Source of the DNA: Candidatus Omnitrophota bacterium
GTDB lineage: Bacteria > Omnitrophota > Gorgyraeia > Duberdicusellales > 4484-171
Direction: 5' to 3'
Assembly: GCA_021735655.1 (NCBI GenBank)
Contig: JAIPGM010000001.1
Coordinates: 161,728-225,727 of the forward strand
DNA: 64,000 nt
Shown here: positions 32,037 to 59,217 of the stretch, piece by piece
Numbering within the stretch: the first letter of the stretch is position 1
Layout: each line of letters begins with the position of its first letter
The notes under the pieces: model-generated
The model's input: the letters and a program-made list of their open reading frames with translations, nothing else
Databases searched by the model: none
Told to the model about the DNA's origin: nothing
Position numbers and translations under genes: made by a program

Positions 32037-32064
32037 AACGATAAGTTAAGATTGAACAATAAAG

Positions 32065-33159: not shown

Positions 33160-33174
33160 CTTTTTAATTTTAAT

Positions 33175-34140: not shown

Positions 34141-34146
34141 TAGACT

Positions 34147-43163: not shown

Positions 43164-46100
43164 AGAATTATCTAGTCACCTGGGATAAAATATGTAAGGG
43201 TATAACTAAGCAAAAGAAGATATTTTGTGGCCCACACACTGTCCAAATAGATTTAACCGACAAATGCAATAGTAGCTGCGTTGCTTGTTGGATTCACTCA
43301 CCTTTAGTTGAGGAAAAAAAATCATTTCCAGAAGGCAAAAAACAACTTTCTTTCGAATTAGTTAAAAGTTTGATTAATGATTTGTCTGATTTAGGAACTC
43401 AGGAGGTAATTTTATCCGGATCAGGGGAGCCATTTTTATATCCAGAAATAAAAGAGGTTATAAAAAATATAAAGTCAAAAAATATGTATCTAAATATAAT
43501 TACCAATGCTTCTCTTATCGATGAGGAAATGGCAGAGCTGTTAGTAAAATGCAAAGTCGATTTAATTACTGCCAGCATATGGGCCGGTGATGCTGAAACT
43601 TACAGCTTAACTCATCCAGGAAAAAGCGAAGCTGATTTCGAAAAAATAAAGAGTAACTTAAAGAAATTGGCTTTTTATAAGAAGCGGTATGGTTCATTGG
43701 AGCCGCATTTAAAATTATATAATGTAATTTGCAGTAAAAATTATAGAAATATTGAGGAAATGGTTGATTTTGCTAAATCAATGGATGCCGATTCTTTAGA
43801 GTTTCAGGTTGTTGATATAATTTCTGGGAAAACAGATCATTTGGCCCTGAAAGATGCCTATAAGAGCGAGATAGTAAATCAATTGGACAATATAAGAAAG
43901 CGAAAAGATTTAATATCTTTTAATACGCCTAAAGAAATGCCGATAGATAGTTTTATTGATGAGGAATTTTTTGATTTTGGAAAGATTTGGAAAAATTACA
44001 AAAACGGCTTTTGCGTTTCTCAGTGTAGCAGTTCTTTGGTTTGCAAAAAAGATCACGAGATAAAAGATAAGAGAATTATTGTTTCAGAGTCGACATCAAC
44101 CAGAGGGACTCGTCCGGTTGCATTTTGGTATAAATTTGAAAATAATATATGTAAAACTTGCGAGGAAAATATTGAGTGCGTTGACGATGAAAATGCAGTG
44201 AGCATAAAATTGTTGAATATGTTGGGTATTGGTTCATTTTTGAGGAGATTATTGCGCTCTGATTTAGAGAGAGGGATATATGAAAAGCAAATAAATAGCA
44301 TCCCATGTTATATAGGGTGGTATTATTCTCGTATTTTAGCTAATGGTGATGTTATCCCTTGTTGCAAGGCAGGTAAGTTATCTTTAGGTAATATTAAGAA
44401 AAGAACTTTTTCTAAAATTTGGCATTCCTATCGATATAAAAAGTTTCGGCTTAACGCTAAGAATTTAACTAAGCATCATAAGTATTTTTCTAACATCAAT
44501 TGCATCAAGAGTTGCGATAATTGGGGAGTAAATTTAGAAATCGACGGGAGATTGAAGGAATTTGAAAATAAAGAGAAAAAAAAGGAGCCTTACCTTTTAA
44601 CTATCAAGAATAGCATTATAAAGGGTAGGGTTGAGGATACGCTTGCAAAAATTACTCGTAATATTAAACCGAATAATTTAAAAAAGAGATATTCAGAAAT
44701 TTTAGGTGTATTTGATGGTGAACATGGTTATAAAGGTCCATTCCACGTTCAGATAGACTTGACTAATGATTGCAATAACACTTGCATTGCTTGTTGGTGC
44801 AATTCACCTCTTTTGAAAGAGAAACGATTATCGGCTGATAAAAAAAATCAATATTTACCTTTAGGAATGGTAAAGGAATTATTGGATGAGATTACTAATA
44901 TGGGTGCTACTGAGGTCTATTATTCAGGAAGTGGTGAACCATTTATGCATCCAGCGATTATGGAGATTCTCGATTATTCAAAAAAGAAAGGTTTAATCTG
45001 TCACGTAAATACTAATTTTACTCTTCTTAATCAAGAAAAGATAGATTGCTTAATCGATATGGAGGTTGACCATCTTACGGTGAGTGTTTGGGCGGCTACG
45101 GCCGAAACTTATGCAAAAACTCATCCTAATAAAACCGAGGCTGACTTTCAACGGATAAAAGAGAATTTACTATATCTGAACTTACGAAAGAAAAGTAAGC
45201 CCTGTATAAAAATTTATAACGTTATTTTTAACATGAATTACCTTGAAGTTGAGAAGATGCTTGATTTTGCCGTTGAGACTAAATCTGAATCTTTAGAATT
45301 TACCCTTGTAGATACTATGCCTGGGGCTACTGATATGCTTGCTTTAAATCAAGGACAGTTGGATGAGCTTAATGATTTATGCAGGAAAATAAAATTAAAA
45401 TTAGATAAAAATTACATAATTAGGAGTAAAAAGGTATTGCTTTTTCAGTTTGAGCAGTTTTTGAGAAGGATTTCTGTTTCTCAAGATGTCCAGGAGGCAA
45501 AATACGATAGAGGTGTTATTGATAGTATGCCTTGTTATATTGGTTGGCTTTTTGCACGAATAATTCCTAACGGGGAAGTTCATTCTTGTCTTAAGGCGCA
45601 TAGAATTCCGACCGGTTCTTTGTATAAAGATAGATTTTTCGAAATTTGGAATAGTGCTAAACAGGCACATTTTCGTAAAAAGACTTTAGTTTGCAGAAAA
45701 GATGATCCTTTCTTTAGGTTGATTGGCAACGATCCCAATACAAAGGAGGCCGGTTGTTACAAGAGTTGCGATGATATCGGGAGGAACACTTGGATGCATA
45801 ACAAGATGAATATGTTGACGCCACTGGGAAGGCTGACACTTAAGTACGTAGCTAAAGCCATGAAGCCTCTAAGGAGGCTTAGGTCCAAAAACGATAATTT
45901 TAAGAATTACCACAGTGACCCTTTAATTGCCGGGGTCATCCATGGCCGGAAGGCTTTTTTGGGACCCGAACAAGTAGTAATTGATCCGACCAATAAGTGT
46001 AATTTGCAATGCATTTCTTGTTGGATGTATTCGCCATTATTGAAAAAAAATAAACCAGCTTTGGATTTATTGAAACAAGAATTATCTAAAGAGGTACTTA

Positions 46101-47014
46101 TTAAATTAATCGATGATTTAGCTGATTTAGGAACAAAGCGTATTAGGTTCACTGGTGGCGGAGAGCCTTTTATGCATAAAGATTTGATGACAGTAATAGA
46201 GCATGCCCGAAAAAAGAATATTTTAGTTGCGGTAACTACGAACTTTGGTTTGGTCTCTAGACAGGATATTCTTAGATTGTGTGATTTGGGATTGGAGGAG
46301 TTATGCATAAGCATTTGGGGTTCTTCATCGAGAGTCTACAATTTGGTTCATCCTGGTACCGGTGAGGATTATTTTAAGAAATTAAAAGAAAATCTTTCTT
46401 ATTTGAAAGGGCTAAATAAGTATAAACCGCGGACTACCTTTGCTAATGTAATCATGAATAATAATTTCACTGATTTTGAAGCAATGTATGATTTTGCTTT
46501 AGATCATGGAGCTGATGCAGCCTATTTTACCTTGGTTGATATTATTTCCGGTCAAACCGATAAGTTCTTGTTGAATAAAGATGAACGAAGCGAATTGCTA
46601 AAGAGAGCTCTTATGGTTCAGCAACGAAATAAAGATAACAAGCTGCAGCTTGAATTTTTTGAGAATTTTCTAAAAAGAGTATCTAGTTTCCAAGGAGACT
46701 TTGAAAAAGGAGAATATGATAAATCGAGCATTGATCAATTGCCTTGTTATGCCGGCTGGATTTTTTCAAGAGTTTTGGCAGACGGAAGCGTTGCGCCCTG
46801 CTGCCGGGGGGTTAAAAAAATAATCGGCAACATCAAGACTAAATCTTTTAAAGATATTTGGTTTTCGCCCGAATACAATGAGTTTAGAGTTAAAGCAAAG
46901 TATTTATCGAAAAGCAACGCTTACTTTAAGGATATAGGCTGTATAAAAGAATGTGATAATTTGATGCATAATCAGGAGTTTCATAAAAGAATAAATCTAA
47001 AAGAAGGAGGTTGA
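43160..47014 (+). CDS. Triple-module radical SAM/SPASM-like fusion protein (1,284 aa)
   Basis: Three paralogous modules carry CNSSCVAC (43265-43288), CNNTCIAC (44771-44794) and CNLQCISC (45998-46021). Each is followed by SGSGEPF/TGGGEPF and a Cys-rich auxiliary-cluster region (PCYIGW...PCC...C.K.CDN). The start overlaps the upstream stop by ATGA. Confidence 0.8.
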   Translation: MKNYLVTWDKICKGITKQKKIFCGPHTVQIDLTDKCNSSCVACWIHSPLVEEKKSFPEGKKQLSFELVKSLINDLSDLGTQEVILSGSGEPFLYPEIKEVIKNIKSKNMYLNIITNASLIDEEMAELLVKCKVDLITASIWAGDAETYSLTHPGKSEADFEKIKSNLKKLAFYKKRYGSLEPHLKLYNVICSKNYRNIEEMVDFAKSMDADSLEFQVVDIISGKTDHLALKDAYKSEIVNQLDNIRKRKDLISFNTPKEMPIDSFIDEEFFDFGKIWKNYKNGFCVSQCSSSLVCKKDHEIKDKRIIVSESTSTRGTRPVAFWYKFENNICKTCEENIECVDDENAVSIKLLNMLGIGSFLRRLLRSDLERGIYEKQINSIPCYIGWYYSRILANGDVIPCCKAGKLSLGNIKKRTFSKIWHSYRYKKFRLNAKNLTKHHKYFSNINCIKSCDNWGVNLEIDGRLKEFENKEKKKEPYLLTIKNSIIKGRVEDTLAKITRNIKPNNLKKRYSEILGVFDGEHGYKGPFHVQIDLTNDCNNTCIACWCNSPLLKEKRLSADKKNQYLPLGMVKELLDEITNMGATEVYYSGSGEPFMHPAIMEILDYSKKKGLICHVNTNFTLLNQEKIDCLIDMEVDHLTVSVWAATAETYAKTHPNKTEADFQRIKENLLYLNLRKKSKPCIKIYNVIFNMNYLEVEKMLDFAVETKSESLEFTLVDTMPGATDMLALNQGQLDELNDLCRKIKLKLDKNYIIRSKKVLLFQFEQFLRRISVSQDVQEAKYDRGVIDSMPCYIGWLFARIIPNGEVHSCLKAHRIPTGSLYKDRFFEIWNSAKQAHFRKKTLVCRKDDPFFRLIGNDPNTKEAGCYKSCDDIGRNTWMHNKMNMLTPLGRLTLKYVAKAMKPLRRLRSKNDNFKNYHSDPLIAGVIHGRKAFLGPEQVVIDPTNKCNLQCISCWMYSPLLKKNKPALDLLKQELSKEVLIKLIDDLADLGTKRIRFTGGGEPFMHKDLMTVIEHARKKNILVAVTTNFGLVSRQDILRLCDLGLEELCISIWGSSSRVYNLVHPGTGEDYFKKLKENLSYLKGLNKYKPRTTFANVIMNNNFTDFEAMYDFALDHGADAAYFTLVDIISGQTDKFLLNKDERSELLKRALMVQQRNKDNKLQLEFFENFLKRVSSFQGDFEKGEYDKSSIDQLPCYAGWIFSRVLADGSVAPCCRGVKKIIGNIKTKSFKDIWFSPEYNEFRVKAKYLSKSNAYFKDIGCIKECDNLMHNQEFHKRINLKEGG

Positions 47015-47020
47015 AGTTAA

Positions 47021-47839
47021 TTGAATATGGCGGGTAAAGTGGGTGCTATCGATTTTCAATTATTTTTAAGAAAAATCAGCCTTGAGCGTTTTTTTCAAAG
47101 TTTTTATTATTTTAAATGGTTGGAATACCCTTTAGTCTACAATAACCTTGAACTAAAAGCAGGTGAACAGTATCTCGATATCGGTAGTGGAAAGTCCATT
47201 TTTCCTCTATTTGTCGTAGCGAAAAATAACTGTAACGTGCACGTATTTGATGATCAGTCCATTATAAAAGACAGTATTACTTATTATCAGAGCAATATTA
47301 GAAAGATGGGGTTATGCAATATTTCTGGAAAAAATTTCTTGATTCACGAAGCTACAGAGAAAGGACAGCTCGATTTTCCTGATAATTACTTTGATAGAGT
47401 TTCTTGTATTTCGGTATTAGAGCATATTAAGGGCAATGGTGATAGTGTAATGATGCAGGAAATATCAAGAATTTTAAAAAAAGGCGGGAGGGCTGTGATA
47501 ACTTTTCCGTTTAATGGCAAGGATTATATAGAAGAAGATAACCCAGAAGGGGTAGGATATTTCCAGCGGAAGTATAGTGTAGCGGCGATTAAAGAGCGGA
47601 TAATTGATCCAGCCAATTTAAAGGTTAAGAAGGTTATATATTTTGGAGAACGTTATATAAGTTTTGGGGAACAATACTTGCAGAATAAATTTAGAAAAAT
47701 AAATTGGCTCATACCTTTATTCGCGCCTATTTTATGGAGGGTGTGCCATTATTATGAAGGTGAATATCGCAATTTTTATGAGCGAGCAATAGATAAAAAA
47801 GGTACTGGCGTAGCGTGTATTGTTTTTGATAAGATTTGA
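47021..47839 (+). CDS. Class I SAM-dependent methyltransferase
   Basis: Motif I YLDIGSGKS, then ISVLEHI and LKKGGRAVITFP. The track start is a TTG at 47021; an ATG at 47027 is an alternative. Confidence 0.7.
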   Translation: MNMAGKVGAIDFQLFLRKISLERFFQSFYYFKWLEYPLVYNNLELKAGEQYLDIGSGKSIFPLFVVAKNNCNVHVFDDQSIIKDSITYYQSNIRKMGLCNISGKNFLIHEATEKGQLDFPDNYFDRVSCISVLEHIKGNGDSVMMQEISRILKKGGRAVITFPFNGKDYIEEDNPEGVGYFQRKYSVAAIKERIIDPANLKVKKVIYFGERYISFGEQYLQNKFRKINWLIPLFAPILWRVCHYYEGEYRNFYERAIDKKGTGVACIVFDKI

Positions 47840-47864: not shown

Positions 47865-48737
47865 ATGCTGACTTTTCCTAAATATCTTTCAATCCAAACT
47901 ACTTCTCTATGCAATGCTTCTTGTGTATTTTGTCCCTATAAAGATATAAAAGATGTAAGGTTCAAGACAATAATGGATAGAGGCCTTTATGAAAAAGTTA
48001 TTAATGAATGCAGTAACCATAAAGATATTGAATGCATTATAGTTTACATGAATAACGAGCCCTTAACTGATCCTTGCATAGTTGAGAGAATAAATTATGC
48101 CAAAGATAAAGTTCCTTGGGCTAGTGTGCATATCTTGACCAATGGAGCCTTACTTAGCGATGACCTGGCTGATAAACTTATTGATTCTCGTCTAGACTGG
48201 ATCGGGGTAAGCTTTCATGGGATCAGAAAAGAAACTATAGAGCGGGCAATGGGCATTCCTTATGAGATCAGCTTGAAGAGAATAACCAATTTTATCGAAA
48301 AAGCAAAAGCGAAGAAAAATATAAAGAACTATTTTATGCTAACTTTTTTGCGCCATGTATATTTGACTCCTCAAGAGCGGGAAGAGGCTATTAGTTTTTG
48401 GAGAAAACTGGGGATAGAAAGAATAAGCTATTTTGACGGGCCCATATCTCGGGCCAGCAATGTAACTAATTTACCAAAAGTCTACCATCAAGGCAAGATC
48501 AGTGGATGTAATTCTATCTGGGCTGATGAGATGCTTCATGTGGTAGAGGATGGTAAGGTTATTTTGTGCTGCATGGATTGGCGAAGAGAAGTAATTTTAG
48601 GCGACCTAAACAAACAAAGCATCCATGAAATATGGAATGGCAAAAGAAGAAAGATTTGGGATATGATTCGTGGAACAGGAGAGGTTCCTGAAGGATTTTT
48701 GTGCCGCAGGTGCGAAGAGGCTAAGCAAGAGATTTAA
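47865..48737 (+). CDS. Radical SAM protein with C-terminal SPASM/twitch-like Cys cluster
   Basis: CNASCVFC at 47910-47933, and C-terminal CNSIW...LCCMDW...FLCRRCEEA. Confidence 0.75.
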   Translation: MLTFPKYLSIQTTSLCNASCVFCPYKDIKDVRFKTIMDRGLYEKVINECSNHKDIECIIVYMNNEPLTDPCIVERINYAKDKVPWASVHILTNGALLSDDLADKLIDSRLDWIGVSFHGIRKETIERAMGIPYEISLKRITNFIEKAKAKKNIKNYFMLTFLRHVYLTPQEREEAISFWRKLGIERISYFDGPISRASNVTNLPKVYHQGKISGCNSIWADEMLHVVEDGKVILCCMDWRREVILGDLNKQSIHEIWNGKRRKIWDMIRGTGEVPEGFLCRRCEEAKQEI

Positions 48738-48740
48738 AGG

Positions 48741-50909
48741 ATGCTCATGAAAAATGAAAATTGCGAATTAATTTTTGTAATGACTCCGCCTTGGCAGACA
48801 AAGATGCCGCCTTTAGGCTTGGCCTATTTAGCCAGTTTTTTGAAGTCAAACAATATTAACGTAGATGTCATAGATTTGAATGTGGATCTTTTTAATAATG
48901 CTCAAGAATGCCATAAATATTTTTGGGATATAGAAACAATAAGTAATTTTGGTTCGCTTCGGATTGCCCAAGATTTTATTAAGGCATTCAATAAAGAACT
49001 TGAAAATTTTGTTGATCGAATCTGTAGTCATCCTGCAAAGTTGGTCGGTTTTTCTACTACGGTAGCTAGTATAAATATCGCCACCTACCTTACTCATCGG
49101 ATAAAATCAAAAGATCCTTCGAAAATAATTATTTTAGGCGGGCCAGGATGTTTTTTGGATACTTGCAATATAGATCCTGAAAGGGTGGTAGATATTTTTG
49201 TCATTGGCGACGGAGAGCTGCCTTTATTGGATATAGTTAAAAGATTTAAAGATAAACAGTCTTTGTCTGATTTGTTGGAGGTTCCTGGGACAATAATTTG
49301 TCTAGATAAGAAATATCATGACTTTTCACCGGCGAATCCTGTTAAGCAGATAAACGATATTCCTTTTCCTACTTTTTCGGAGTTCGAGCTGGATGAATAC
49401 CATAAAGAACATGTTTACAAACCAATTCCAATTATTACCAGCAGAGGCTGTATAAATAAATGCAGTTTTTGCGTAGACCATAAGCTCAGTAATCCTTTTA
49501 GATTTCGAAATCCGCACAAAATATTTGAAGAGATAAAATACCATGTAGAAAATAATTGTAAAAAAGAGTTTGAGTATAACGATCTACTATGTAATGGAAA
49601 TTTAAAGCAATTGGAGCAGCTTTGCGACCTGATCATTGAAAGCGGCCTGTCTATAAAATGGACAAGCTATGCGGCCATAAGGAAAGGTATGAGTTTAGAG
49701 TTATTTCAGAAGATGCAGAAGGCGGGATGCAGATTTTTATGTTATGGTATGGAGTCAGCTTCAGATTTAGTTTTAGATAAGATGAATAAAAGATATAATT
49801 CTCATACGGCAGAGGATGTTATTAGAAAAACCCATTCCTCAGGTATCGAGACAGGAATCAACATTATAGTTGGCCACCCCGGTGAGTCGAATAAAGAATT
49901 TAACCAAACTTATAGATTTATCAAAAGAAACAAAGACTACATTGATCAAATCACAAACCTGTCTACTTGTTTTTTAATACCGACTTCGGATTTAGCTGAG
50001 AATATGAGCAATTTCGGTATTTATTTTTATTCTCCTTTGAAAAGGATGCCAAAATTCTTATTTCGAAATAAAGAGCTTGAGCCTAATTATGAAAATTTCT
50101 GCGCCTATCCTCATAATACTCCTGCGATTAGAGCAAAACGAGCCAGAAAAATTATAACTCTTGCTTCAAAGATAGCTATACCGATTACTATTTTGAACTA
50201 TCAAAAGCAGCACGATATGGGTATGGGGGATTTTCTAGTCCAAACTCAAGAAGCGGAAAAAGTTTTTCGTTGTAAGAAGTTAAAGATAGACTTTAGTCAA
50301 AAAGGAAGCGGTAGGTTATATTATGACAATAAGGCCTTAACTAAAGACGTAGGCCTAAATGCTTCCTTTCATGCCAATGGGCGATGGTTTGATTCTTCTT
50401 CGGCAAAGTGTCGGGTAGCCAGATCCAACAGAGGCTTGGAAATAAGAATGAGTTGGCCGGAGATTTCTTTGTTTCAATGCTGGACGATAAAAACAGAAGG
50501 TGATTCTTCTGTCGAATGGCGGGTAAAAACAGAGTTTAAAAGGTCTTTGGAGCTATCTCAATATAAGATCGGCATTATCTTGTCACAGGAATACGATAGT
50601 TGCCAAGTTAATGGTGAAGAACACCGATTCTCCGATAATTTTACCGAGAACTGGGAGGAAGCATTGTTTTTGAAGCTTGATTCGATAAGCATCGGCTCTA
50701 AGGGATTTTTACCGATGATGACCCTGAAGGAAGAATCCAAGGGTGGTGTGTTCGTGCAGGTCCATAATACCCCGCTTCACTTGCATACTCGAATGATTAA
50801 TTTTTGCCGTTTTGGCGAGAACCTTAAAGATGACCACAGCACTGAATCTTTATTGATCAAAAAAGGTGATGTTTGGAAAAATAAGCTAAAAATAAAATTA
50901 AAGGTTTAA
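48741..50909 (+). CDS. B12-binding-domain radical SAM enzyme (class B) with C-terminal copy of the Wzt-tail domain
   Basis: The N-terminal LIFVMTPPWQTKMPPLGLAYLASFL is B12-domain type. CINKCSFC is at 49449-49472. The C-terminal domain (about 50265-50906) is LKIDFSQKGSGRLYYDNKALTKDVGLNASF..W.DS...FQCWTIK...SVEWRV. Confidence 0.8.
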   Translation: MLMKNENCELIFVMTPPWQTKMPPLGLAYLASFLKSNNINVDVIDLNVDLFNNAQECHKYFWDIETISNFGSLRIAQDFIKAFNKELENFVDRICSHPAKLVGFSTTVASINIATYLTHRIKSKDPSKIIILGGPGCFLDTCNIDPERVVDIFVIGDGELPLLDIVKRFKDKQSLSDLLEVPGTIICLDKKYHDFSPANPVKQINDIPFPTFSEFELDEYHKEHVYKPIPIITSRGCINKCSFCVDHKLSNPFRFRNPHKIFEEIKYHVENNCKKEFEYNDLLCNGNLKQLEQLCDLIIESGLSIKWTSYAAIRKGMSLELFQKMQKAGCRFLCYGMESASDLVLDKMNKRYNSHTAEDVIRKTHSSGIETGINIIVGHPGESNKEFNQTYRFIKRNKDYIDQITNLSTCFLIPTSDLAENMSNFGIYFYSPLKRMPKFLFRNKELEPNYENFCAYPHNTPAIRAKRARKIITLASKIAIPITILNYQKQHDMGMGDFLVQTQEAEKVFRCKKLKIDFSQKGSGRLYYDNKALTKDVGLNASFHANGRWFDSSSAKCRVARSNRGLEIRMSWPEISLFQCWTIKTEGDSSVEWRVKTEFKRSLELSQYKIGIILSQEYDSCQVNGEEHRFSDNFTENWEEALFLKLDSISIGSKGFLPMMTLKEESKGGVFVQVHNTPLHLHTRMINFCRFGENLKDDHSTESLLIKKGDVWKNKLKIKLKV

Positions 50910-50919
50910 AAATTTACAT

Positions 50920-53900
50920 ATGAATCTAACAGATAAAATTTTATTAGTGGGTCTTGCTCCTTGGGGAGTAGATACGCCACCCCTAGCCTTAGCTTGTTTA
51001 AGTACCTCTTTGAGGAATGCAAATATTAGCACTGAAGTATTTGATATGAATATTGAGCTTTACAATGCCGTTAATGAGCAAAGTAAATATTTGTGGAGTA
51101 TGAATTATTCTCATTGGTGGCGAGAGCCAGAAAGATATTCTGATATTAGAAAGGAATTAGATGTTTACATAGAACCTTTAATAAAGAAAATTTTAAGTTT
51201 TAAGCATAAGATAGTTGGCTTTTCACTTTCTACTAATTGCTCTGACCTTTTGTTGGAGGAGATAGTAAAAAGAATAAAAACTAGCGATCCCGATAAGGTA
51301 ATAATTCTAGGTGGTGTTTCAATTTCAATAAATGAGCAGAGAAATGATTTAATTAGGAAGTTAAGGACGCAGATAGATTACTGTGTGATTGGAGAAGGAG
51401 AAGAGGTACTTGTCGAATTGGTAAAGAAAATAGCTAGCAATAAGCTAGAAGATATAGGTCGATTGCCAGGCATAATTAAGAAGGGTGAGTTTGAAGGAGT
51501 TAAACAGAGGGCAGAGATCAAAGATTTTAATTCGCTGCCATTTCCTACATTTGAAGAATTCAATTTAAAAAAATATAAAGCACCCGTGAGCTTACCTATG
51601 GAATTTTCTCGTGGCTGCGTAGGTAGTTGTCCTTTCTGCGATTTTAAAAGCGTTTCTTCTGCCTTTAAGTCAAAAGCACCTTATTATATTATAAGCCAGA
51701 TAAAATTCTATAAAGAAAAATACAATATTATTCATATGAGCCTATCTGACCCAGCAGTAAATGGAGATATTAGGGTTCTTGAGCAAATATGTGATTTATT
51801 AATCGAAGCTAACCTTTCTGTAAATATAAATTCTCTGGCAATTCCCCGCAAGGAAATGACCTTAGAACTATTAGAGAGAATGAAGAAAGCAGGTTTTTAT
51901 CGTTTGGAGTATGGTCTAGAGAGCGGTTCGAATAAGATTCTCAAAGCAATGAGGAAAATATTTACTGTCGAAATTGCCGAGAAAGTTATCCGAGATACTT
52001 ATCAAGCAGGGATAAAAACATATCTCTATTTAATTGTGGGTTATCCACAGGAGACAGAGGATGATCTCAATCAGACCAAAGATTTTTTGAATAGAAACCG
52101 TCAGTATATTTCCATGATAAAGTCTATCAACCCTCTTTATGTAATGGCCGGTTCAGAGATATTTTGCAATCCCGATAAATATCAAGTCACATTACCGGCT
52201 AAAGATAGTGACAAGAGATGGTTTATTGGTGATAAGAATACATATTCTTTGCGAAAAGCCCGGATATTTGAACTTAAAAAAGTAGTTGCTAGTTTAAATA
52301 TTCCCTTTACCGAAGAGGCGGAATCTTTAGAGTTTACTGGAAACTCTTTAAATAAACAACAAGGAATCGTTGTAGGTGGAGGCAATCCATACGATAAAGA
52401 TGAGTCAACTACAGAAAATAAAATTATGTCTAGAGGATATGCAGAACAAAAAACAGATAAATATAGAGATAGTTTTTTATTAATTAATTTGCCCCCTTGG
52501 GGTCAAGAAAATCCTCATATCGGAGTAGGCTATGTGTGTAGCTATCTTCGTCATAAAGGCTTTAAGCCATCGGTCTTAGACTTGAATAAGAAATTTTATT
52601 TGAGTCAGCCAAATTTTCAAATGCTCTGGCATGTAGAAAATAAAAACTTTTGGTCAAATCAAGATTCTTTTCCTTTGATTTTAAAATTATTTAAGAAGGA
52701 AATAGATAAGGCAATAAATGATATTTTGTCTTCAGGTTGCAGCCTATTAGGTTTCTCGGTAGTTGACCCTAAAGAAAAAATAACTATAGAGTTCATTAGG
52801 AGAATAAAACGTAGGGATAAAAGTAAAAAGATAATTTTAGGTGGTCCGGCAACTTCTACTTATGAGCAGAGAAAGATATTTTTGGATAATGTTGAGGAAG
52901 AGATAGATACTTTTGTGATCGGCGAAGGCGAGCAAACTTTGTTTAAGGTAGTAGACCGAATTTTAAAGAAAAAAGAGCTTAAAGGTATCGAGGGTTGTTG
53001 CAGCCGGGATAATGGTAAGTGGGTTTGTCGAGAAAGCGGTGAGATTGTTTCTTTAGATAAGATTCCTTTCCCGACCTATGAGGAATTTGATTTGAGTCTA
53101 TACGGTAAATCTTTCCTTGTTGAATGGTCAAGAGGCTGTAGGAGTAAATGCGCTTTTTGCAAAAATTATCGGCTTTTTTCTTCTTATCGGTCAAAGTCAG
53201 CTGAATCGGTTATGAAGGAATTGAGATATCATAAGCAAAAGTATAATGTAGATGAATTCACTGTAGTCGATAATATTTTGAATGGTGATCTAAATACCTT
53301 GAATGATATTTGCGACAGGATAATAAAGGAAAATCTTCAAATTAGATGGACTGGGCAAATTGCCCCCCGCAAAGATATGAATTTTGAATATTTCCAAAAA
53401 ATGAAGCAGGCCGGATGTTTTAAACTTCAAATTGGCCTTGAGTCTGGTTCGAACAAGGTGTTAAAGTTAATGCATAAGAGCTTTACGGCAGAGATTTCTG
53501 AAAAAAATATAATTTTTGCTAAGAAAGCAGGCATTGAGACAGAAATTTTTACAATGATTGGTTTTCCCGGGGAGGCTGAGAAAGATTTTCAAGAAACTTA
53601 CGATTTTATAAAAAGAAATGCAAAATATCTGGATACCATAAAATCGATAAACACCTTACATCTAATAGCCGGAACTGAAATCTATGAGCAGAGAGAGCGT
53701 TTTAAAATAAAGCCTTTACCTCAAGAAAACTGGCATTATTTATGGGAAACTTATGAGGGAAATACATACAAGGTACGGGAAGAAAGAGCTAAGCGTATTC
53801 TAGGGTTAGCTTGCGATCTTAAGATTAAAGTTATGGAGACTAATATTATAGAGGGAAAAGAGCAAAAAGTTTTGCTTGAAAATCTCGGCTTATTGGAAAA

Positions 53901-54078
53901 ATCCCTGAATTCTTTGCAAGAGTTACCAGAAAAAGAAGAATTTAAGCTAAAAAGAAGAAATATTAATAAATGGTTAATCCTGATTTTTGTTTCTTTTTAC
54001 ACATTTTTTTATATTATTTATTTTTGGGTATTTATGATTTTTAGAAATAAAGTTCTCTTGGGGGGAAGAAAAAAGTGA
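50920..54078 (+). CDS. Double-module B12-binding radical SAM fusion protein with C-terminal transmembrane helix
   Basis: Module 1 (50920 to about 52360) has CVGSCPFC at 51616-51639. Module 2 (about 52473-53900) has CRSKCAFC at 53137-53160. Both open with a B12-domain-like LxxPPWG...P.lG motif. The C-terminal WLILIFVSFYTFFYIIYFWVFMIF is a TM helix. Confidence 0.8.
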   Translation: MNLTDKILLVGLAPWGVDTPPLALACLSTSLRNANISTEVFDMNIELYNAVNEQSKYLWSMNYSHWWREPERYSDIRKELDVYIEPLIKKILSFKHKIVGFSLSTNCSDLLLEEIVKRIKTSDPDKVIILGGVSISINEQRNDLIRKLRTQIDYCVIGEGEEVLVELVKKIASNKLEDIGRLPGIIKKGEFEGVKQRAEIKDFNSLPFPTFEEFNLKKYKAPVSLPMEFSRGCVGSCPFCDFKSVSSAFKSKAPYYIISQIKFYKEKYNIIHMSLSDPAVNGDIRVLEQICDLLIEANLSVNINSLAIPRKEMTLELLERMKKAGFYRLEYGLESGSNKILKAMRKIFTVEIAEKVIRDTYQAGIKTYLYLIVGYPQETEDDLNQTKDFLNRNRQYISMIKSINPLYVMAGSEIFCNPDKYQVTLPAKDSDKRWFIGDKNTYSLRKARIFELKKVVASLNIPFTEEAESLEFTGNSLNKQQGIVVGGGNPYDKDESTTENKIMSRGYAEQKTDKYRDSFLLINLPPWGQENPHIGVGYVCSYLRHKGFKPSVLDLNKKFYLSQPNFQMLWHVENKNFWSNQDSFPLILKLFKKEIDKAINDILSSGCSLLGFSVVDPKEKITIEFIRRIKRRDKSKKIILGGPATSTYEQRKIFLDNVEEEIDTFVIGEGEQTLFKVVDRILKKKELKGIEGCCSRDNGKWVCRESGEIVSLDKIPFPTYEEFDLSLYGKSFLVEWSRGCRSKCAFCKNYRLFSSYRSKSAESVMKELRYHKQKYNVDEFTVVDNILNGDLNTLNDICDRIIKENLQIRWTGQIAPRKDMNFEYFQKMKQAGCFKLQIGLESGSNKVLKLMHKSFTAEISEKNIIFAKKAGIETEIFTMIGFPGEAEKDFQETYDFIKRNAKYLDTIKSINTLHLIAGTEIYEQRERFKIKPLPQENWHYLWETYEGNTYKVREERAKRILGLACDLKIKVMETNIIEGKEQKVLLENLGLLEKSLNSLQELPEKEEFKLKRRNINKWLILIFVSFYTFFYIIYFWVFMIFRNKVLLGGRKK

Positions 54079-55235
54079 AAATACTAATGGTGCACCCCCA
54101 TGATTTATTTGATCGGTCTGAACCTTGGACGATAAGAATTAAGAGTATAGCCAGAGAATTTGAGAAAAAGGATCACAAGGTTAAATTGTGTTATTTCCCT
54201 TTAACTATAAATGAAAAACATTATCCTAAAAATATGGGATCTATAGAACTGATCCCCTTAGATCGAACACCTTCTCCGAAAGCTTTTATTATAAATATAA
54301 TTAAACTTATAAAATTGTGTAAATGGGCGAATATCGTCCACTTGCAGAAATGTCATCATTACTCTTCAATCCCTACGGTAATTGCTGCCTATATTGCCGC
54401 TAAGCCTCTTCATTATGACTGGGATGATTGGGAGGAGAAAATTTGGTATGAATCCTGCGGTAGAGGTTTACATTCCCGTTTCATCGGTTTTTCATTTAAA
54501 GTATTAGAGAGATGGCTTCCGGTTTTAGCTGATTCAACTTCTTGTGCTAGCAAGTGTTTGAGAAACTTAACTTATAAGTTTGGAGTAAAAAAAGAATACA
54601 TATTTGATACTCCGGTAGGAGCTGATCTAGATAAATTTAAGCCTAGCCTAAATGGTCAATGGGTTAAGAAAAAATTCAATATTAGTTCAGATTTAGTTTT
54701 ATATATTGGTCAGTTACACGGAGCCCAATACGTAGATATATTTATAAAAGCGGCCAATATCCTTTCTTCTGAGCGGCCGGATGTCAAATTTATGATTGTT
54801 GGTGAAGGTTTTTCGGAACATTCATTGAAACAGCTTACTTATGATTTAGGCTTAAAAGATAAAGTTATTTTTACCGGGAGCATACCTTATGGTGATATTC
54901 CCGATTATGTTAATGCTGCATCAGTATGCGTGGCACCCTTTAAAGATACTGAGGTAACTCGTTGCAAGAGTCCTTTAAAAATTGCAGAGTATTTAGCCAG
55001 CGGTAAACCAATAGTGGCAAGTTTAGTAGGTGAAGTAAGAAATATGATCGGCGGCTGTGGAGTTTTAGTCAAGCCGGGGGATCATCATTCTTTAGCTGAA
55101 GGAATTCTGCGCCTAGTTGAAGATAAAGAATTAAGAGGTAAATTATCTAAGCATGCACGTAAGCGGGCTGAGAGAAAGTATAACTGGACCAACACGGCAG
55201 ATTCCTTAATTTGCGCCTACAAAAAGATACTGTAA
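54075..55235 (+). CDS. GT4 family glycosyltransferase
   Basis: 386 aa with a GT-B type C-terminal domain (YIGQLHG...VGEG...SPLKIAEYLASGKPIVAS). The GTG start overlaps the upstream TGA. Confidence 0.8.
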   Translation: MKILMVHPHDLFDRSEPWTIRIKSIAREFEKKDHKVKLCYFPLTINEKHYPKNMGSIELIPLDRTPSPKAFIINIIKLIKLCKWANIVHLQKCHHYSSIPTVIAAYIAAKPLHYDWDDWEEKIWYESCGRGLHSRFIGFSFKVLERWLPVLADSTSCASKCLRNLTYKFGVKKEYIFDTPVGADLDKFKPSLNGQWVKKKFNISSDLVLYIGQLHGAQYVDIFIKAANILSSERPDVKFMIVGEGFSEHSLKQLTYDLGLKDKVIFTGSIPYGDIPDYVNAASVCVAPFKDTEVTRCKSPLKIAEYLASGKPIVASLVGEVRNMIGGCGVLVKPGDHHSLAEGILRLVEDKELRGKLSKHARKRAERKYNWTNTADSLICAYKKIL

Positions 55236-56335
55236 TGAAGTTTGTATTTATAACTCGAGAAGGCCTTGAGAATCCGGGAGCCAGAACCCGTTGTTATAGT
55301 TTATCGGCTAAACTAAGGCAAAAAGGACTAAGGGCTGATGTTTTTTCTTTTTCCGATAGGTTGGGTGCTAAATCAGGAAAAGATGAAATTGATTTTACTT
55401 TTTTTGAGAAGTTTAAGCATATTTATAAGGGATTTAAGTTACTCTCAAAAGAAAAAGATAAGCCGATCTTTATCGTAAATCGCTTTAATTATCATACAAT
55501 TCCGGCATGGCTAGTTTCTAAGCTTAAAAAGATACCTTTGGTGTTTGATATGGATGATTGGGAGGCAAGAGAAGATATAGGGTATTATTTTGGACTATTC
55601 CCTAAGTCAAAAGCCGAATACCTTGCTGGTTTATTTGCAAAGAACAGCATGTTTTGTATTGCGGCTAGTAATTATTTAAGAGATTATCTTTTGCAGTTTA
55701 ACAAGAAGGTTTATTATCTGCCCACCGGAGTAGATACTGATAAATTTAAGTCCCTTGGTCGTAAAGACAAGAAAGATTTTATTTTTTCATGGCATGGTTC
55801 GGTGAATAGGATAGAGGTTTTAAAATATATAAAATTTATCATTGATTGCTTTTTGGCTATTCGTAAAAAATATCCTTTTATTAAGCTGGTTATTGCCGGA
55901 GACGGTATTTTCGGAAATGAATTGCGAAAATTAGTCAAAGCTTCGAGTTCTAACAGTATAATATATGCTGGGTGGATTAATTATCGGAGTATTCCCAGTC
56001 ATCTAGATAGTATTGATGTTGGATTGGTACCGCTTTTGGATAAGACCCGGTTTAATTTATCAAAAAGCCCGGTTAAATTATTTGAATATATGGCTATGGC
56101 CAAGCCAACCATCTCTAGTAATATCGGAGAAGCAGCCAGTATTATTGATAATGGCGAGAATGGATTTTTAGCTGGAACCGAGGAAGAATTTTTAGAAAGG
56201 ATGGAAGCTCTGATTAAAGATAAAGATTTGGGTAAAAAGATAGGGGATAATGCTCGTAAAACAGTAGAGAAGCAATACTCTTTAGATGTCGTTAGTGAAT
56301 CAGCCTATGAAATATTGGCTGGTATCAATGCTTAG
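55235..56335 (+). CDS. GT4 family glycosyltransferase
   Basis: MKFVFITREG...SWHGSVN...IAGDG...SPVKLFEYMAMAKPTISS. The track begins at a TTG (55211). The ATG at 55235 forms a TAATG overlap with the upstream stop and is the more likely start. Confidence 0.8.
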   Translation: MKFVFITREGLENPGARTRCYSLSAKLRQKGLRADVFSFSDRLGAKSGKDEIDFTFFEKFKHIYKGFKLLSKEKDKPIFIVNRFNYHTIPAWLVSKLKKIPLVFDMDDWEAREDIGYYFGLFPKSKAEYLAGLFAKNSMFCIAASNYLRDYLLQFNKKVYYLPTGVDTDKFKSLGRKDKKDFIFSWHGSVNRIEVLKYIKFIIDCFLAIRKKYPFIKLVIAGDGIFGNELRKLVKASSSNSIIYAGWINYRSIPSHLDSIDVGLVPLLDKTRFNLSKSPVKLFEYMAMAKPTISSNIGEAASIIDNGENGFLAGTEEEFLERMEALIKDKDLGKKIGDNARKTVEKQYSLDVVSESAYEILAGINA

Positions 56336-56380: not shown

Positions 56381-57058
56381 TTGGGTTATCTTGTTGAGAC
56401 GCATCAACTAACTAAAATATTTAAGCCACACAAAGGCATTGGTGAGAAGCTTAGAGGCTCAGCAGCTCGAACCGAGGTAAAGGCTGTAGATAGAGTTAGT
56501 TTTTCTTTAGAAGCAGGTTCCACCATGGCTATTATGGGTCCTAATGCTGCCGGAAAAACAACTCTTTTAAAACTAATCGCTTCTTTAATTATTCCAACCA
56601 GTGGTCGGATTTCGGTTAAAGGTACAATTGGTTTGGTTACCGGGGAAGAGAGGAGTTTTTACTGGCGCTTGAGCGGTCAGCAGAATTTAGAGTTTTTTGC
56701 TGCTTTGTACGGTTTGGGAAAATCCGAAGCCAAGAGGCGAATCCAGCAGTTGGTTGAATTGCTGGGCATCGAGGATATGAGTGATGTTCTGGTTCAAGAG
56801 TATTCCTCGGGATACAAACAGAGGCTGGCTATTGCTAGAGGATTATTGCATGATCCGGATATCTTGCTTTTAGATGAACCCACTAAAAATTTGGATTCTT
56901 CTCACGCTGAACATTTAAGAATTTTTATAAGAGAAAACTTAGGTAAAGAAAGCAAAAAGACAGTTATTTTTACTAGTCATAACTTAGAGGAAGCTTCGTT
57001 TTTAGCGAATAAATTAGCAGTAATGGATAAGGGTTGCCTAAGGCAACAGGATAGTTGA
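56381..57058 (+). CDS. ABC transporter ATP-binding protein (ABC-2 subfamily)
   Basis: Walker A GPNAAGKTT, signature YSSGYKQRLAIA, Walker B LLLDEPTKNLD. The TTG start is preceded by AAAGGAG at 56366-56372. Confidence 0.85.
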   Translation: MGYLVETHQLTKIFKPHKGIGEKLRGSAARTEVKAVDRVSFSLEAGSTMAIMGPNAAGKTTLLKLIASLIIPTSGRISVKGTIGLVTGEERSFYWRLSGQQNLEFFAALYGLGKSEAKRRIQQLVELLGIEDMSDVLVQEYSSGYKQRLAIARGLLHDPDILLLDEPTKNLDSSHAEHLRIFIRENLGKESKKTVIFTSHNLEEASFLANKLAVMDKGCLRQQDS

Positions 57059-57059
57059 T

Positions 57060-57863
57060 ATGGGAAAAATTATAGCATTTATTAAGAAAGATTTTCAAAT
57101 TTTTTTAAGTTATAAGCTATTTTTCATGTTGCGTTGGGCGGGTATTGTTATACCGGTTGTTACTTTTTATTTTATATCTAAGTTTATCGACCAGCAGGGG
57201 AATATTGCCTTCAGCGAATATCGAGGAGGGTACTTCCCTTTTGTGGTTATAGGCTTGTCAGTATACGGCTATCTTCTTGTCTTGTTGCGTTCAGCTTCTG
57301 AAGGTATGCGGCAGGAGCAGATGTACGGAACTTTAGAGGTTATTTTTGCTACCCCGGTAAAAAGTAGTATCGTAGCAATTTCGGCAGGTTTGTGGAATAG
57401 TCTTATTGCTTTAGTTGCTATGGTGGTATGTTTGGTAACCGGAATTTTATTGTTTAAGGAGGGCATTGTTGCTTTGGATTGGTTTGCCTTATTTTTAACT
57501 TTAATTATGATTGTCGTTAATTTTTTAAGCATAGGTATATTGGCTGCTGCAGTAATAGTGGTTTGTAAAAGAGGTGATCCGATTGCTTGGTTTGCTAGTA
57601 CATTCTTTGCTTTTTTTGGCGGAGTTTATTATCCAGTGAGTGTTTTGCCTAAAGGGTTTCAGAAAATATCTCAGTTTTTACCGATCACTTATGCTGTCAG
57701 GGCTTTGCGTAAAGTTATACTTGCCGGGGCAACATCTGTCGAGATAACTAACGAGTTAGTTGTGTTGTTTATTTGTGCAGTATGTTTGTTGCCTTTATCT
57801 TTAATTATTTTTAGTTATGCTGTGCGGCGAGCTAAGATGAGCGGTAGCTTATCTTATTATTAG
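57060..57863 (+). CDS. ABC-2 type transporter permease
   Basis: 267 aa with six hydrophobic segments, immediately downstream of its ATPase. Confidence 0.75.
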   Translation: MGKIIAFIKKDFQIFLSYKLFFMLRWAGIVIPVVTFYFISKFIDQQGNIAFSEYRGGYFPFVVIGLSVYGYLLVLLRSASEGMRQEQMYGTLEVIFATPVKSSIVAISAGLWNSLIALVAMVVCLVTGILLFKEGIVALDWFALFLTLIMIVVNFLSIGILAAAVIVVCKRGDPIAWFASTFFAFFGGVYYPVSVLPKGFQKISQFLPITYAVRALRKVILAGATSVEITNELVVLFICAVCLLPLSLIIFSYAVRRAKMSGSLSYY

Positions 57864-57870
57864 GTAATGA

Positions 57871-59217
57871 TTATTCACTTAAATTGTTGGTAATATTTTG
57901 CTGGGCATAAACTTCATTAACATAAATTCCTAGCCCTTCTGGGGAGAATCGCTTTTTTGGAACAATGCGTATACACCCTTTATATTTTTCAATTACATCT
58001 TTTCGAATCATTTTTTTAAATGTTTTTAAACTTTTGTTGTAGTCGTGGCTCGGCCAGAAATTGTATTTTTTATTTAGGCGGGAGTAATTTAAAAAACGAT
58101 CCGGGTTAGATATTATTTTTTCCAGATCGCAGTTAAACCGGTCATTGAAATAATCTATATTTATTCCCTCGGGTAATAGAAGCTGTAGGTAGATAGCACG
58201 TAGAAGGCTCCAGTAAAATGGTTTGTCGTTAGAGAGAAGCGCTTTGGTTTGGCTGAGAGGATTTTTGATGTACTCTTTGATATTTATTGAATTCATGCCG
58301 TCCCAGCCTATGGCTCCGGCGCCAAGGCCCATAAAGGGAACGCAGAAAACAAAGATTAGTTCTGATAGAAACTCTTTTCCTTTTTTGGCAAAATAAGTAT
58401 GAAAATAATTAGGATATCCATTGTTAGATAAATAGTCGTAGGCATGGAGGATTAAATCTAAATTGCCCGCTATCAAGTTCATTCGGTATGGGTTGAATAT
58501 TTTTTTTTCGATTATGTTCGTTGATTTATCAAATAAGGGGCCAGGCACCGGGAGTAAGGTGGCATAAGACATGTGGTCTGGTTCCATGCTAACAGCAATT
58601 TTTAAGTCATCTTTGCATTCGGAAAACGTCTGGCCTGGAAAGTTGCATAGCAAGTCAAGGTTTACGTTTTTAAAACCAACCTTACGTATGCGATCGTAAC
58701 TAGAATAAATATCCTTTGCTCGGTGGTCGCGGTTTAAGCCTGAGAGGATTTTGTTATTAAAAGTTTGCACCCCGATACTTATTCGGTTAAACCCTATAGA
58801 TTTTAAGCCGCGGACTTTTTGGTCAGTTAAAGAATCAGGAGTTGCTTCTATGCTTATTTCTACGATGTCGCTTCTATTTTGTCCGGAGCAGGAAAGTATT
58901 GAAGAAATTATCTTATCCAGTTCTTTTACCGAGAGTAAAGACGGAGTTCCTCCGCCAAAATAAATTGCTTTTAGCTTTGTTTTTCGGTTTTTTTCGGAAC
59001 AAAAGCTTTTTACCGCGAGCTCTTTTAAGAGAGCTTTGATGTAAGGGGTTTTTAGTTCTTTTAAGGCTAGAAAATCATTATTATACCTGCGGCAGAAACA
59101 ACAGAAGTGACATTTGTATTTACAAAAAGGGATGTGGACATATACTAGTGATAAGTCATTGGATTGTCGTAACTGCGGTATGGTAAGAGTTGCTTTGGAT
59201 TTTTGTAGATTGCCCAT
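57871..59217 (-). CDS. Radical SAM protein, HemN/HemW (oxygen-independent coproporphyrinogen oxidase-like) family
   Basis: YVHIPFCKYKCHFCCF (CxxxCxxC), YFGGGTPS, and a HemN-like C-terminal domain. This is the only minus-strand gene, convergent with 57060-57863 across a 7-nt gap. Confidence 0.75.
   Translation of the reverse strand: MGNLQKSKATLTIPQLRQSNDLSLVYVHIPFCKYKCHFCCFCRRYNNDFLALKELKTPYIKALLKELAVKSFCSEKNRKTKLKAIYFGGGTPSLLSVKELDKIISSILSCSGQNRSDIVEISIEATPDSLTDQKVRGLKSIGFNRISIGVQTFNNKILSGLNRDHRAKDIYSSYDRIRKVGFKNVNLDLLCNFPGQTFSECKDDLKIAVSMEPDHMSYATLLPVPGPLFDKSTNIIEKKIFNPYRMNLIAGNLDLILHAYDYLSNNGYPNYFHTYFAKKGKEFLSELIFVFCVPFMGLGAGAIGWDGMNSINIKEYIKNPLSQTKALLSNDKPFYWSLLRAIYLQLLLPEGINIDYFNDRFNCDLEKIISNPDRFLNYSRLNKKYNFWPSHDYNKSLKTFKKMIRKDVIEKYKGCIRIVPKKRFSPEGLGIYVNEVYAQQNITNNLSE

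Follow-up and report, generated by a model that had tools for sequence, protein, structure and literature searches.

A two-module class-B radical SAM protein with a glycosyltransferase-linked tail module in a candidate glycan-export cassette of Omnitrophota

In the 64,000-nucleotide stretch of Candidatus Omnitrophota DNA analysed here (contig JAIPGM010000001.1, positions 161,728 to 225,727; hereafter the window), the open reading frame (ORF) at 50920-54078 on the forward strand encodes, without interruption, a 1052-amino-acid (aa) protein with two class-B radical S-adenosylmethionine (SAM) modules and a conserved hydrophobic tail. Sequence comparison identifies this protein, hereafter the target, as a fusion joining two anciently diverged paralogues rather than the outcome of an in-place duplication, and its tail as an independent conserved module, homologous to a single-helix mini-protein, rather than a plain anchor. 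The gene lies between a Wzm/Wzt-like exporter of the ABC-2 type and a gene for a glycosyltransferase of family GT4 (here GT1a), within a cassette that is rich in radical SAM enzymes and most likely serves to modify a cell-surface sugar polymer and to export it, in bacteria and archaea of ultra-small size. We propose, with a probability of roughly 0.6, that the radical SAM modules of the cassette tailor a lipid-linked glycan by radical chemistry, held at the membrane, before it is exported.

The target has a 100% identical entry at NCBI, named just 'radical SAM protein [Candidatus Omnitrophica bacterium]', and is organised as follows (pLDDT, predicted local distance difference test score):

50920-54078, forward strand: whole target ORF, comprising class-B radical SAM module 1, a linker, class-B radical SAM module 2 and a conserved C-terminal tail.
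50932-52314, forward strand: module 1 (aa 5-465; lineage T_m1), a Rossmann-like B12-binding domain and a radical SAM barrel.
51160-51420, forward strand: B12-binding match of module 1 (aa 81-167), from Pfam.
51616-51639, forward strand: CX3CX2C cluster motif of module 1, CVGSCPFC (aa 233-240), from motif position and homologue alignment.
52315-52467, forward strand: polar, disordered inter-module linker (aa 466-516), with pLDDT 22-29 and lying between the modules in the half-versus-half alignment.
52468-53859, forward strand: tail-proximal module 2 (aa 517-980; lineage T_m2), from Pfam and orthologues.
53137-53160, forward strand: CX3CX2C cluster motif of module 2, CRSKCAFC (aa 740-747), from motif position and homologue alignment.
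53884-53928, forward strand: short conserved helix with an 'LQELP' motif before the tail (aa 989-1003), from the model (helix 989-998) and tail alignments.
53932-54075, forward strand: tail module (aa 1005-1052), with a basic flank, hydrophobic helix, second basic flank and terminal LLGG (54055-54066).
53971-54042, forward strand: 24-residue hydrophobic helix WLILIFVSFYTFFYIIYFWVFMIF (aa 1018-1041), from hydrophobicity.

Aligned with each other, the two halves (aa 5-465 and aa 516-975) are 34% identical over 463 columns (E 1e-94). Scanned separately, they match the Radical_SAM profile PF04055 with 83.3 bits (module 1) and 79.1 bits (module 2) at a cut-off of 29.5, and module 1 scores 43.7 bits with the B12-binding profile PF02310, over the gathering score of 32.1. 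In the homologue alignment, the cluster cysteines C233 and C240 of module 1 are invariant and C237 is nearly so, and C740, C744 and C747 of module 2 are all invariant. Furthermore, the residues SRGC..C..C, D..N, G.ES, G.P.E and W, which include cluster and SAM-site positions, are invariant among 12 homologues in both modules, which speaks for activity of both. In an AlphaFold model based on 12 homologues, the two modules are well folded, most blocks having a pLDDT of about 80-95, and aa 1015-1042 form a terminal helix; Foldseek finds the modules to resemble the class-B enzymes TsrM, OxsB, MgmA, CysS and TokK, as well as AprD4 and MiaB. Judged by domain content and predicted fold, the target modules belong to the radical SAM superfamily and, within it, to class B. 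An earlier note on this DNA had read two full B12-domain plus radical SAM modules with the same motif positions, a polar linker and a C-terminal hydrophobic helix; the modules are borne out by Pfam, the half-versus-half alignment and the model, the linker by its disorder, and the helix by hydrophobicity, moment, model and conservation. Of the profile check proposed there, PF04055 held for both modules and PF02310 for module 1, module 2 remaining slightly below the PF02310 threshold.

The same note had called the protein 'duplicated', a misleading term for what are separate old paralogue lineages with orthologues of their own, some of them free-standing. Module-by-module BLAST comparison distinguishes three such lineages in the window, namely T_m1, T_m2 and a 722-aa protein encoded just upstream (48741-50909), with mutual identities of 32-34%. 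Orthologues of T_m2 are 50-71% identical to it and constitute the last module in nearly every tail-bearing protein, those of T_m1 are 39-57% identical and include free-standing genes of 490-503 aa in loci L018 and L021, and those of the 722-aa protein, at 43-58% identity, form a set of their own. Since orthologues exist for each module separately, in part as stand-alone genes, we interpret the target as a fusion. The two paralogues that the note had offered for comparison fared differently: the 722-aa protein is of the same subfamily and 33% identical to each target module, whereas the product of 40797-43163 is just 26% identical. The minimal cassettes of L064, L065 and L081 have one class-B module, about equally distant from the three lineages.

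Across 75 further loci from species-representative genomes, 69 ORFs carry one module of the subfamily, 23 carry two, 18 three and nine four, up to a maximum length of 2527 aa. Nearly all close homologues with a source name are labelled Omnitrophota, and most come without a name. Their lengths fall into distinct classes:

About 1030-1075 aa: two class-B modules.
1300-1340 aa: a radical SAM-SPASM unit and two class-B modules.
1500-1540 aa: three class-B modules.
1780-1840 aa: a SPASM unit and three class-B modules.

These classes indicate that the genes for a 290-aa radical SAM-SPASM protein and for the 722-aa class-B protein, both upstream of the target, are fused to the target's modules elsewhere; indeed, the 290-aa SPASM protein is joined to the N-terminus of the class-B chain in the 1300-1840 aa relatives. 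We ruled out a recent tandem duplication, as the modules are 34% identical and closer orthologues of each exist elsewhere, as well as an assembly or frameshift artefact as the source of the fusion, as two-, three- and four-module chains are found in dozens of independent metagenome-assembled genomes (MAGs). The four-module proteins, of 2300-2530 aa, occur at L047:5452-13032 and L048:4629-12209 and also in L040, L045, L049, L051, L052, L054 and L056, in MAGs labelled Deltaproteobacteria (L047), 'bacterium' or 'uncultured bacterium'. They have an N-terminal region of 330-560 aa with unassigned content, and within 10 kb of them neither a tail nor GT1a nor Wzt was seen.

At the other end of the target, aa 1018-1041 form the sole hydrophobic segment of the protein, with a Kyte-Doolittle 19-residue maximum of 2.19, an Eisenberg mean of 0.93 and a moment of 0.17. 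Such hydrophobicity and low moment appear typical of a membrane-spanning helix, and a single hydrophobic helix near the C-terminus (within about 30 residues), with no signal peptide or other membrane segment, is the layout of tail-anchored proteins, which the target shares. A profile of the tail (last ~58 residues) matches some 40 related loci, in each case at the very C-terminal end, and these matches are of two main types, ..KW.iLi.vsfYtfFYIvYFW.yM.lRnKvLLGG.. and ..LPYL.LIL.LTL.AE.YLW.LKKLR..IIFPGS, which align with each other without gaps; the 'LQELP' motif is likewise kept in the tail alignments. The same profile recovers free-standing homologues as ORFs of 39-46 codons in seven loci, both bacterial and archaeal:

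L006:6122-6250: mini-gene encoding MKNYSRIIGFFVLIYLLILTLVVDVYMWLWEKRKGFSLFPGS, unannotated in the archaeal record.
L060:5510-5641: mini-gene in an archaeal-labelled locus.
L064:11228-11365: mini-gene, Omnitrophota.
L065:16261-16380: mini-gene, Omnitrophota.
L069:2282-2404: mini-gene, Omnitrophota.
L076, ending at 3201: mini-gene, Omnitrophota.
L081, ending at 16425: mini-gene, Omnitrophota.

Four mini-genes are present in public data as called 39-aa hypothetical proteins (P0105-P0108). These four 39-aa proteins are all that a word-indexed search with the tail profile returned, and as it missed known fused tails the count is a lower bound; Pfam and NCBIfam scans of the tail and the mini-proteins gave no match. 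In every split case the mini-gene sits between the last radical SAM gene and the GT4 orthologue, with gaps or overlaps of a few bases, and the GT1a orthologue is directly preceded by a tail or a mini-gene in 39 of the 39 loci that have GT1a. The partner of the tail can differ, as in L072, where it is fused to a SPASM radical SAM protein rather than to a class-B chain, and Desulfobulbales-type loci (L074, L077, L078 and L080) carry a more divergent hydrophobic tail in the same position. L006 (Nitrososphaeria archaeon) and L060 (Candidatus Woesearchaeota archaeon) agree in gene order, in an identical mini-ORF and in near-identical profile scores across the cassette; one of these taxonomic labels, if not both, may be unreliable.

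By homology, then, the tail is best described as an independent conserved module. The 'membrane anchor' of the earlier note is right as to a hydrophobic, membrane-type helix and incomplete as to what the helix belongs to, since the tail is homologous to an independent, GT4-linked gene. In the window, the codons for the terminal LLGGRKK (54055-54078) read TTGGGGGGAAGAAAAAAG, and a Shine-Dalgarno-like GGGGGGAAG sits 9 nt before the GTG start of the downstream glycosyltransferase. Conservation of the terminal Gly-Gly merely as the ribosome-binding site of the next gene was ruled out: its codons vary synonymously between loci, which makes it a protein-level motif, and the motif is also kept where the following gene lies far off or brings a ribosome-binding site of its own. 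Also ruled out were a chance hydrophobic tail from AT-rich DNA, given in-register, gap-free conservation across 29 diverse sequences, and an amphipathic in-plane helix, given hydrophobic moments of 0.09-0.19.

The cassette around the target comprises the following genes:

36567-37349, forward strand: Wzm-like ABC-2 permease (PF01061).
37346-40813, forward strand: Wzt/TagH-like ATPase (TagH and Wzt/RfbE models) with a 905-aa extension.
40797-43163, forward strand: HpnJ/BchE-like class-B radical SAM protein (788 aa; NCBIfam) with an N-terminal copy of a domain that we call domain X.
43160-47014, forward strand: triple radical SAM-SPASM fusion (1284 aa; Pfam and NCBIfam).
47021-47839: SAM-dependent methyltransferase, a separate gene.
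47865-48737, forward strand: small radical SAM-SPASM protein (290 aa).
48741-50909, forward strand: third class-B module of the target's subfamily (722 aa), with a C-terminal copy of domain X.
54075-55235, forward strand: GT4-family glycosyltransferase GT1a, whose GTG start overlaps the target stop as GTGA.
55211-56335, forward strand: second GT4 glycosyltransferase.
56381-57058 and 57060-57863, forward strand: second ABC-2 exporter pair.

The window ATPase scores 156-205 bits with the TagH and Wzt/RfbE models, under their equivalog cut-offs, and its 905-aa extension has no Pfam match, Wzt_C (PF14524) included, even at E up to 10. Nonetheless, the pairing of an ABC-2 permease with a Wzt/TagH-type ATPase, by which the Wzm/Wzt export pathway is recognised, is present here and kept in relatives. 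Indeed, homologue neighbourhoods share a recurring set consisting of a Wzm-like ABC-2 permease, a Wzt/TagH-like ATPase with a long extension, an HpnJ/BchE-like radical SAM enzyme, one to four class-B modules, three or four SPASM radical SAM modules, the tail or mini-gene and two GT4 genes, and the same radical SAM set accompanies a Wzm/Wzt-type ABC-2 exporter and GT4 enzymes in both Omnitrophota and archaeal MAGs. Gene boundaries within the set shift: three SPASM units exist as separate genes of ~400 aa in the minimal and archaeal cassettes or as a fusion of 1284-1430 aa, and Kaelpia has a 1917-aa protein in which they are linked to the HpnJ-like enzyme. In the archaeal locus, Wzt bears the carbohydrate-binding domain Wzt_C, and PMT_2 and genes for a sugar epimerase/dehydratase set are present as well; an initiating transferase (PF00953) and Wzy_C occur in L003, and PMT_2 is also found in L001 and L007. 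Intergenic gaps in the cassette core of the window measure 3-45 nt. A cluster for a ribosomally synthesised and post-translationally modified peptide (RiPP) with a precursor gene hidden in the core was ruled out, given these gaps and a PqqD-like ORF that lies 9 kb off. Immediately upstream, a flavin adenine dinucleotide (FAD) amine-oxidase-like gene (35259-36566, forward strand) adjoins the Wzm gene. It has orthologues (392-453 bits) just upstream of Wzm in L065 and beside a SPASM radical SAM gene in L075, and because these adjoin cassette genes it may itself be part of the cassette.

A further link between exporter and radical enzymes is domain X, a ~220-aa beta-sandwich or all-beta repeat for which a Pfam scan gives no model. 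Its copies in the window are:

38096-40810, forward strand: four tandem copies, in the extension of the Wzt-like ATPase.
40914-41582, forward strand: one copy, at the N-terminus of the HpnJ-like radical SAM protein.
50283-50906, forward strand: one copy, at the C-terminus of the 722-aa class-B radical SAM protein.

A word-indexed homologue search with domain X returned nothing, and an exhaustive profile search found 619 representative proteins with one to eight copies each. Six of the eight domain X proteins scanned with Pfam contain ABC_tran, radical SAM-SPASM or B12-radical SAM domains, the carriers being ABC ATPases, radical SAM-SPASM enzymes and enzymes that combine class-B with SPASM units, and P0124 (1856 aa) combines in one chain a Wzt-like ABC ATPase, five copies of domain X and a radical SAM-SPASM unit, a direct fusion of export and radical-tailoring parts. 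This sharing is good evidence that exporter and radical enzymes recognise a common ligand. The model of domain X resembles, at low confidence, the sugar-binding beta-sandwiches of glycoside hydrolases, weak evidence as to its fold.

We found no description of such a cassette in the literature on radical SAM enzymes with Wzt or polysaccharide clusters, and the combination of exporter and radical enzymes appears to be undescribed. Radical SAM domains do occur within giant multi-enzyme proteins of Omnitrophota, as stated in the matching passages of a recent preprint (10.64898/2026.06.07.730766), passages that do not describe this cassette. The enzyme class and the export route are familiar; what is new is the chaining of several modules, a mini-protein dedicated to the system, domain X and how densely radical enzymes are packed into a cassette of the glycan type.

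In the mechanism that we propose, the cassette would build a lipid-linked glycan or glycolipid at the cytoplasmic face, on which each radical SAM module would carry out one radical tailoring step, that of the class-B modules being most likely the C-methylation of an unactivated carbon. The hydrophobic tail would tether the two target modules to the membrane, next to glycosyltransferase and exporter, and the finished polymer would exit via Wzm/Wzt. Substrate class, chemistry, membrane insertion and a physical complex are what this model puts forward; the sequence comparisons themselves show the domain content, the history of paralogues and fusion, the tail as a module of its own, its link with the GT4 gene and the synteny of the cassette. 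The earlier note had placed the enzyme at a membrane-proximal or lipid-linked substrate next to ABC-2 exporters, and the genomic context indeed fits an exported glycoconjugate. Its 'double methylase' stands as regards the two modules; methylation is not established, as no equivalog cut-off is reached and the folds are ambiguous.

NCBIfam scores of the whole target are sums over its two modules, and with the score so split every match falls far short of its equivalog cut-off. The best NCBIfam match is TIGR03975, a RiPP C-methyltransferase family, with 280.1 bits at a cut-off of 281.85, roughly half of the score coming from each module, and the single-module paralogue scores 110 bits. The target further scores 172.9 bits with HpnJ (cut-off 577.6), 90.8 bits with HpnR (cut-off 650) and 179.4 bits with TIGR04072, a lipid-biosynthesis class-B radical SAM family (cut-off 360). 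On these scores, the target modules fall outside every named equivalog family tested (TIGR03975, PhpK, HpnJ/R, BchE, Mmp10-type and TIGR04072).

This absence of an equivalog assignment is one of several points that weigh against membrane-held tailoring as proposed. In the Foldseek comparison the non-methylating OxsB and AprD4 are structurally as near as the methylases, and AprD4 shares the class-B fold and uses no cobalamin. Module 2 scores 28.9 bits (E 1e-6) with the B12-binding profile, slightly under the gathering score of 32.1, and to our knowledge there is no diagnostic sequence motif for base-off/His-off cobalamin binding; an Rfam search of the window found no cobalamin riboswitch. Because no equivalog threshold is reached, non-methylating relatives are equally close and the window holds no cobalamin riboswitch, we lower our grading of the class-B modules as methyltransferases to a tentative one, at or a little below even odds. 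The domain X model has a pLDDT of 58.6. Fourteen tail-bearing loci have no GT1a within reach, some of them truncated by contig ends and others with a different next gene. Finally, both flanks of the tail helix are strongly basic (mean +3.6 and +3.3), so that the positive-inside rule does not predict a C-terminus crossing the membrane, and many versions have Asp, Glu or Tyr within the helix; with these flanks and residues, sequence rules settle neither orientation nor full membrane span.

Several of these points would suit a closely related alternative, in which the glycan is tailored at the membrane by ring contraction, dehydration, epimerisation or C-C bond formation rather than methylation, the Rossmann domain being structural or cobalamin having a role other than methyl transfer. 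OxsB, which contracts rings, and AprD4, a sugar diol dehydratase with a target template-modelling score (TM-score) of 0.72, are among the nearest folds (E about 1e-16 to 1e-15), module 2 stays under the B12-binding threshold, and the cluster has a separate SAM-dependent methyltransferase (47021-47839). Nevertheless, the class-B enzymes characterised so far are mostly methyltransferases, the best sequence-family matches are to C- and P-methyltransferase families, and the best target TM-score, 0.73, comes from the methylase MgmA, so that we hold tailoring without methylation to be unlikely. Similarly unlikely, in our view, is a role on membrane lipids after the models of GrsA/B, Hgm, Hbs, Cds and HpnP/R/J, with radical SAM modules performing alkyl or isoprenoid methylation, ring formation, bridging or head-group ring contraction, glycosyltransferases adding the head group and the ABC-2 transporter flipping the glycolipid. 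Class-B, SPASM and HpnJ/Cds-like enzymes do serve tetraether and hopanoid modification, which also counts against a glycan substrate, and Hbs homologues are reported in Omnitrophota (10.1101/2023.10.20.563219); a membrane tail would suit a lipid substrate, and the NCBIfam matches include TIGR04072 and HpnJ/HpnR. Yet those matches, two-module sums of 179/360, 173/578 and 91/650 bits, lie far under their cut-offs, and the gene tables read, either Pfam-annotated or with ORF labels, show no gene matched to a lipid-synthesis family (Tes and Mss, for which there was no profile, were not directly searched). The constant partners are of the polysaccharide type, with Wzm/Wzt, several GT4/GT2 enzymes and in places Wzt_C, a WecA-like transferase, Wzy_C or a sugar epimerase, and domain X resembles sugar-binding sandwiches.

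The tail itself could be read in the opposite sense, as a substrate rather than a membrane element. Under this reading the tail or mini-protein is a ribosomal hydrophobic peptide that class-B and SPASM modules C-methylate or cross-link in a borosin-like manner, and that might subsequently receive sugars and leave through the ABC-2 transporter. A gene of 39-46 codons directly after a row of radical SAM maturase-like genes, the RiPP C-methyltransferase subfamily as best NCBIfam match and the strongly conserved C-terminal half of the mini-protein (..MDTALF.LKK.RG..FFPGG or ..YFW....LLGG) would all agree with it. There are precedents too, as OphMA bears its substrate at its own C-terminus and clavusporins, according to an excerpt of their description, are ribosomally made hydrophobic peptides that bear several C-methylations by B12-radical SAM enzymes. 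However, the distant tails (L074, L077, L078 and L080) are hydrophobic but lack the terminal motif, for which an anchor is the better fit; the tail is fused to differing enzyme classes; no protease is conserved in the cassette; the 280 bits with TIGR03975 arise only as a two-module sum; and the GT4 pair, Wzt_C, the sugar-nucleotide genes, PMT_2 and domain X would be left unexplained. We thus consider a peptide substrate improbable, and very improbable its strict form, in which the tail or mini-protein is a ribosomal substrate or primer and the chain modifies its own C-terminal peptide ahead of GT4 glycosylation and ABC-2 export. If true, that form would amount to a radical SAM counterpart of the borosins and a new class of membrane-active glycopeptides.

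Beyond the cassette, the window opens with a 9751-aa ORF without a stop codon (56-29311, forward strand) that matches GT1, a 4-alpha-glucanotransferase of glycoside hydrolase family GH77, Bac_transf (an initiating sugar transferase), a Glu/Leu/Phe/Val dehydrogenase, a pyridoxal phosphate (PLP) decarboxylase, a GH100 invertase and a second GT1, and in which strong hydrophobicity is confined to three segments, all near aa 4230-4800. This ORF fits the 'multi-enzyme metabolic' type of giant Omnitrophota proteins, as that type appears in the matching passages of the preprint (10.64898/2026.06.07.730766), and its Bac_transf unit could prime the glycan tailored by the downstream cassette. An Opp/Dpp-type peptide importer (29352-35115) lies between the giant ORF and the cassette, the G+C content, about 0.42 across the giant ORF (1-24 kb), drops to 0.34-0.37 in the radical SAM/glycan cassette (36-56 kb), and GC skew is positive throughout 1-64000. 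The sole minus-strand gene of the region (57871-59217) encodes a HemN/HemW-like radical SAM protein (TIGR00539, 205.5 bits at a cut-off of 205.4) and is probably unrelated to the cassette. At the right window edge, a 97-aa PqqD-like ORF (63268-63561, forward strand), of the peptide-recognition element type, may belong to a separate peptide-maturation cluster beyond the window.

Class-B radical SAM enzymes have been known as single modules, mainly from antibiotic, cofactor and lipid pathways. Here they form chains of one to four modules, associated with SPASM enzymes, three or four in number, and with an HpnJ-like enzyme, the dedicated mini-protein and a Wzm/Wzt exporter, in a cassette common to Omnitrophota and MAGs labelled DPANN archaea, lineages among which very small cells dependent on a host have been reported. 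If its product is a surface glycan, radical modifications on it (C-methyl groups, cross-links or carbocycles, for instance) would be unusually dense, and the glycan may matter for the attachment of cells to hosts or prey. For annotation, the cassette offers two handles, namely the mini-protein, a family of 39-46 codons often missed by gene callers, and domain X, which links exporters to radical enzymes. It also teaches that the 'membrane anchor' of a large Omnitrophota enzyme can be an adjacent small gene absorbed through fusion.

The solved class-B enzymes TsrM, MgmA, CysS, TokK and OxsB, together with AprD4, share with each target module an N-terminal Rossmann-like B12-type domain followed by a CX3CX2C radical SAM barrel, with Foldseek E values of 1e-17 to 1e-12 and target TM-scores up to 0.73 at 13-20% sequence identity. 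Unlike them, the target has two modules per chain, with up to four in its relatives, and a conserved membrane tail. As regards chemistry, MoeK5 (moenomycin) and GenK/GenD1 (gentamicin) are class-B radical SAM C-methyltransferases that act on sugars, in the case of MoeK5 on a lipid-linked saccharide. They provide a precedent, likened here by description and not by sequence, for class-B methylation of sugar carbons, including those of a lipid-anchored intermediate (MoeK5 is mentioned in 10.1101/2023.10.20.563219). In contrast to the target, they are single-module, soluble enzymes of antibiotic pathways, outside any Wzm/Wzt surface-glycan cassette. HpnJ and calditol synthase-type enzymes contract the ring of a lipid-linked hexose, a reaction on sugar head groups that takes place at the membrane, and HpnJ is the best NCBIfam match of the cassette's 40797-43163 product, at 236 bits far under the cut-off of 577.6; the target is just 26% identical to this partner, and no hopanoid or tetraether genes were seen near it.

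For the tail, an architectural parallel is found in Dpm1, which is tail-anchored in yeast and corresponds to DPM1 plus DPM3 in mammals, a small membrane element being likewise fused to the enzyme's C-terminus or separately encoded. There is no homology between the two systems, and the target tail differs in being fused to radical SAM enzymes and genetically tied to the downstream glycosyltransferase. In the borosin OphMA the enzyme's own C-terminus carries the substrate, and split borosins exist. The target resembles borosins in having a short hydrophobic segment at the C-terminus of an enzyme and split variants, an analogy of architecture alone, as the enzyme class differs, there is no evidence of tail modification or release, and no conserved protease was seen. 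A parallel for the cassette as a whole is provided by the Wzm/Wzt and TagG/TagH pathways, which similarly have an ABC-2 permease and an ATPase with a C-terminal substrate-recognition extension, along with GT4/GT2 enzymes and initiating transferases nearby. In contrast to these pathways, the Omnitrophota cassette has two to five or more copies of domain X in place of Wzt_C and seven or eight radical SAM modules embedded within it.

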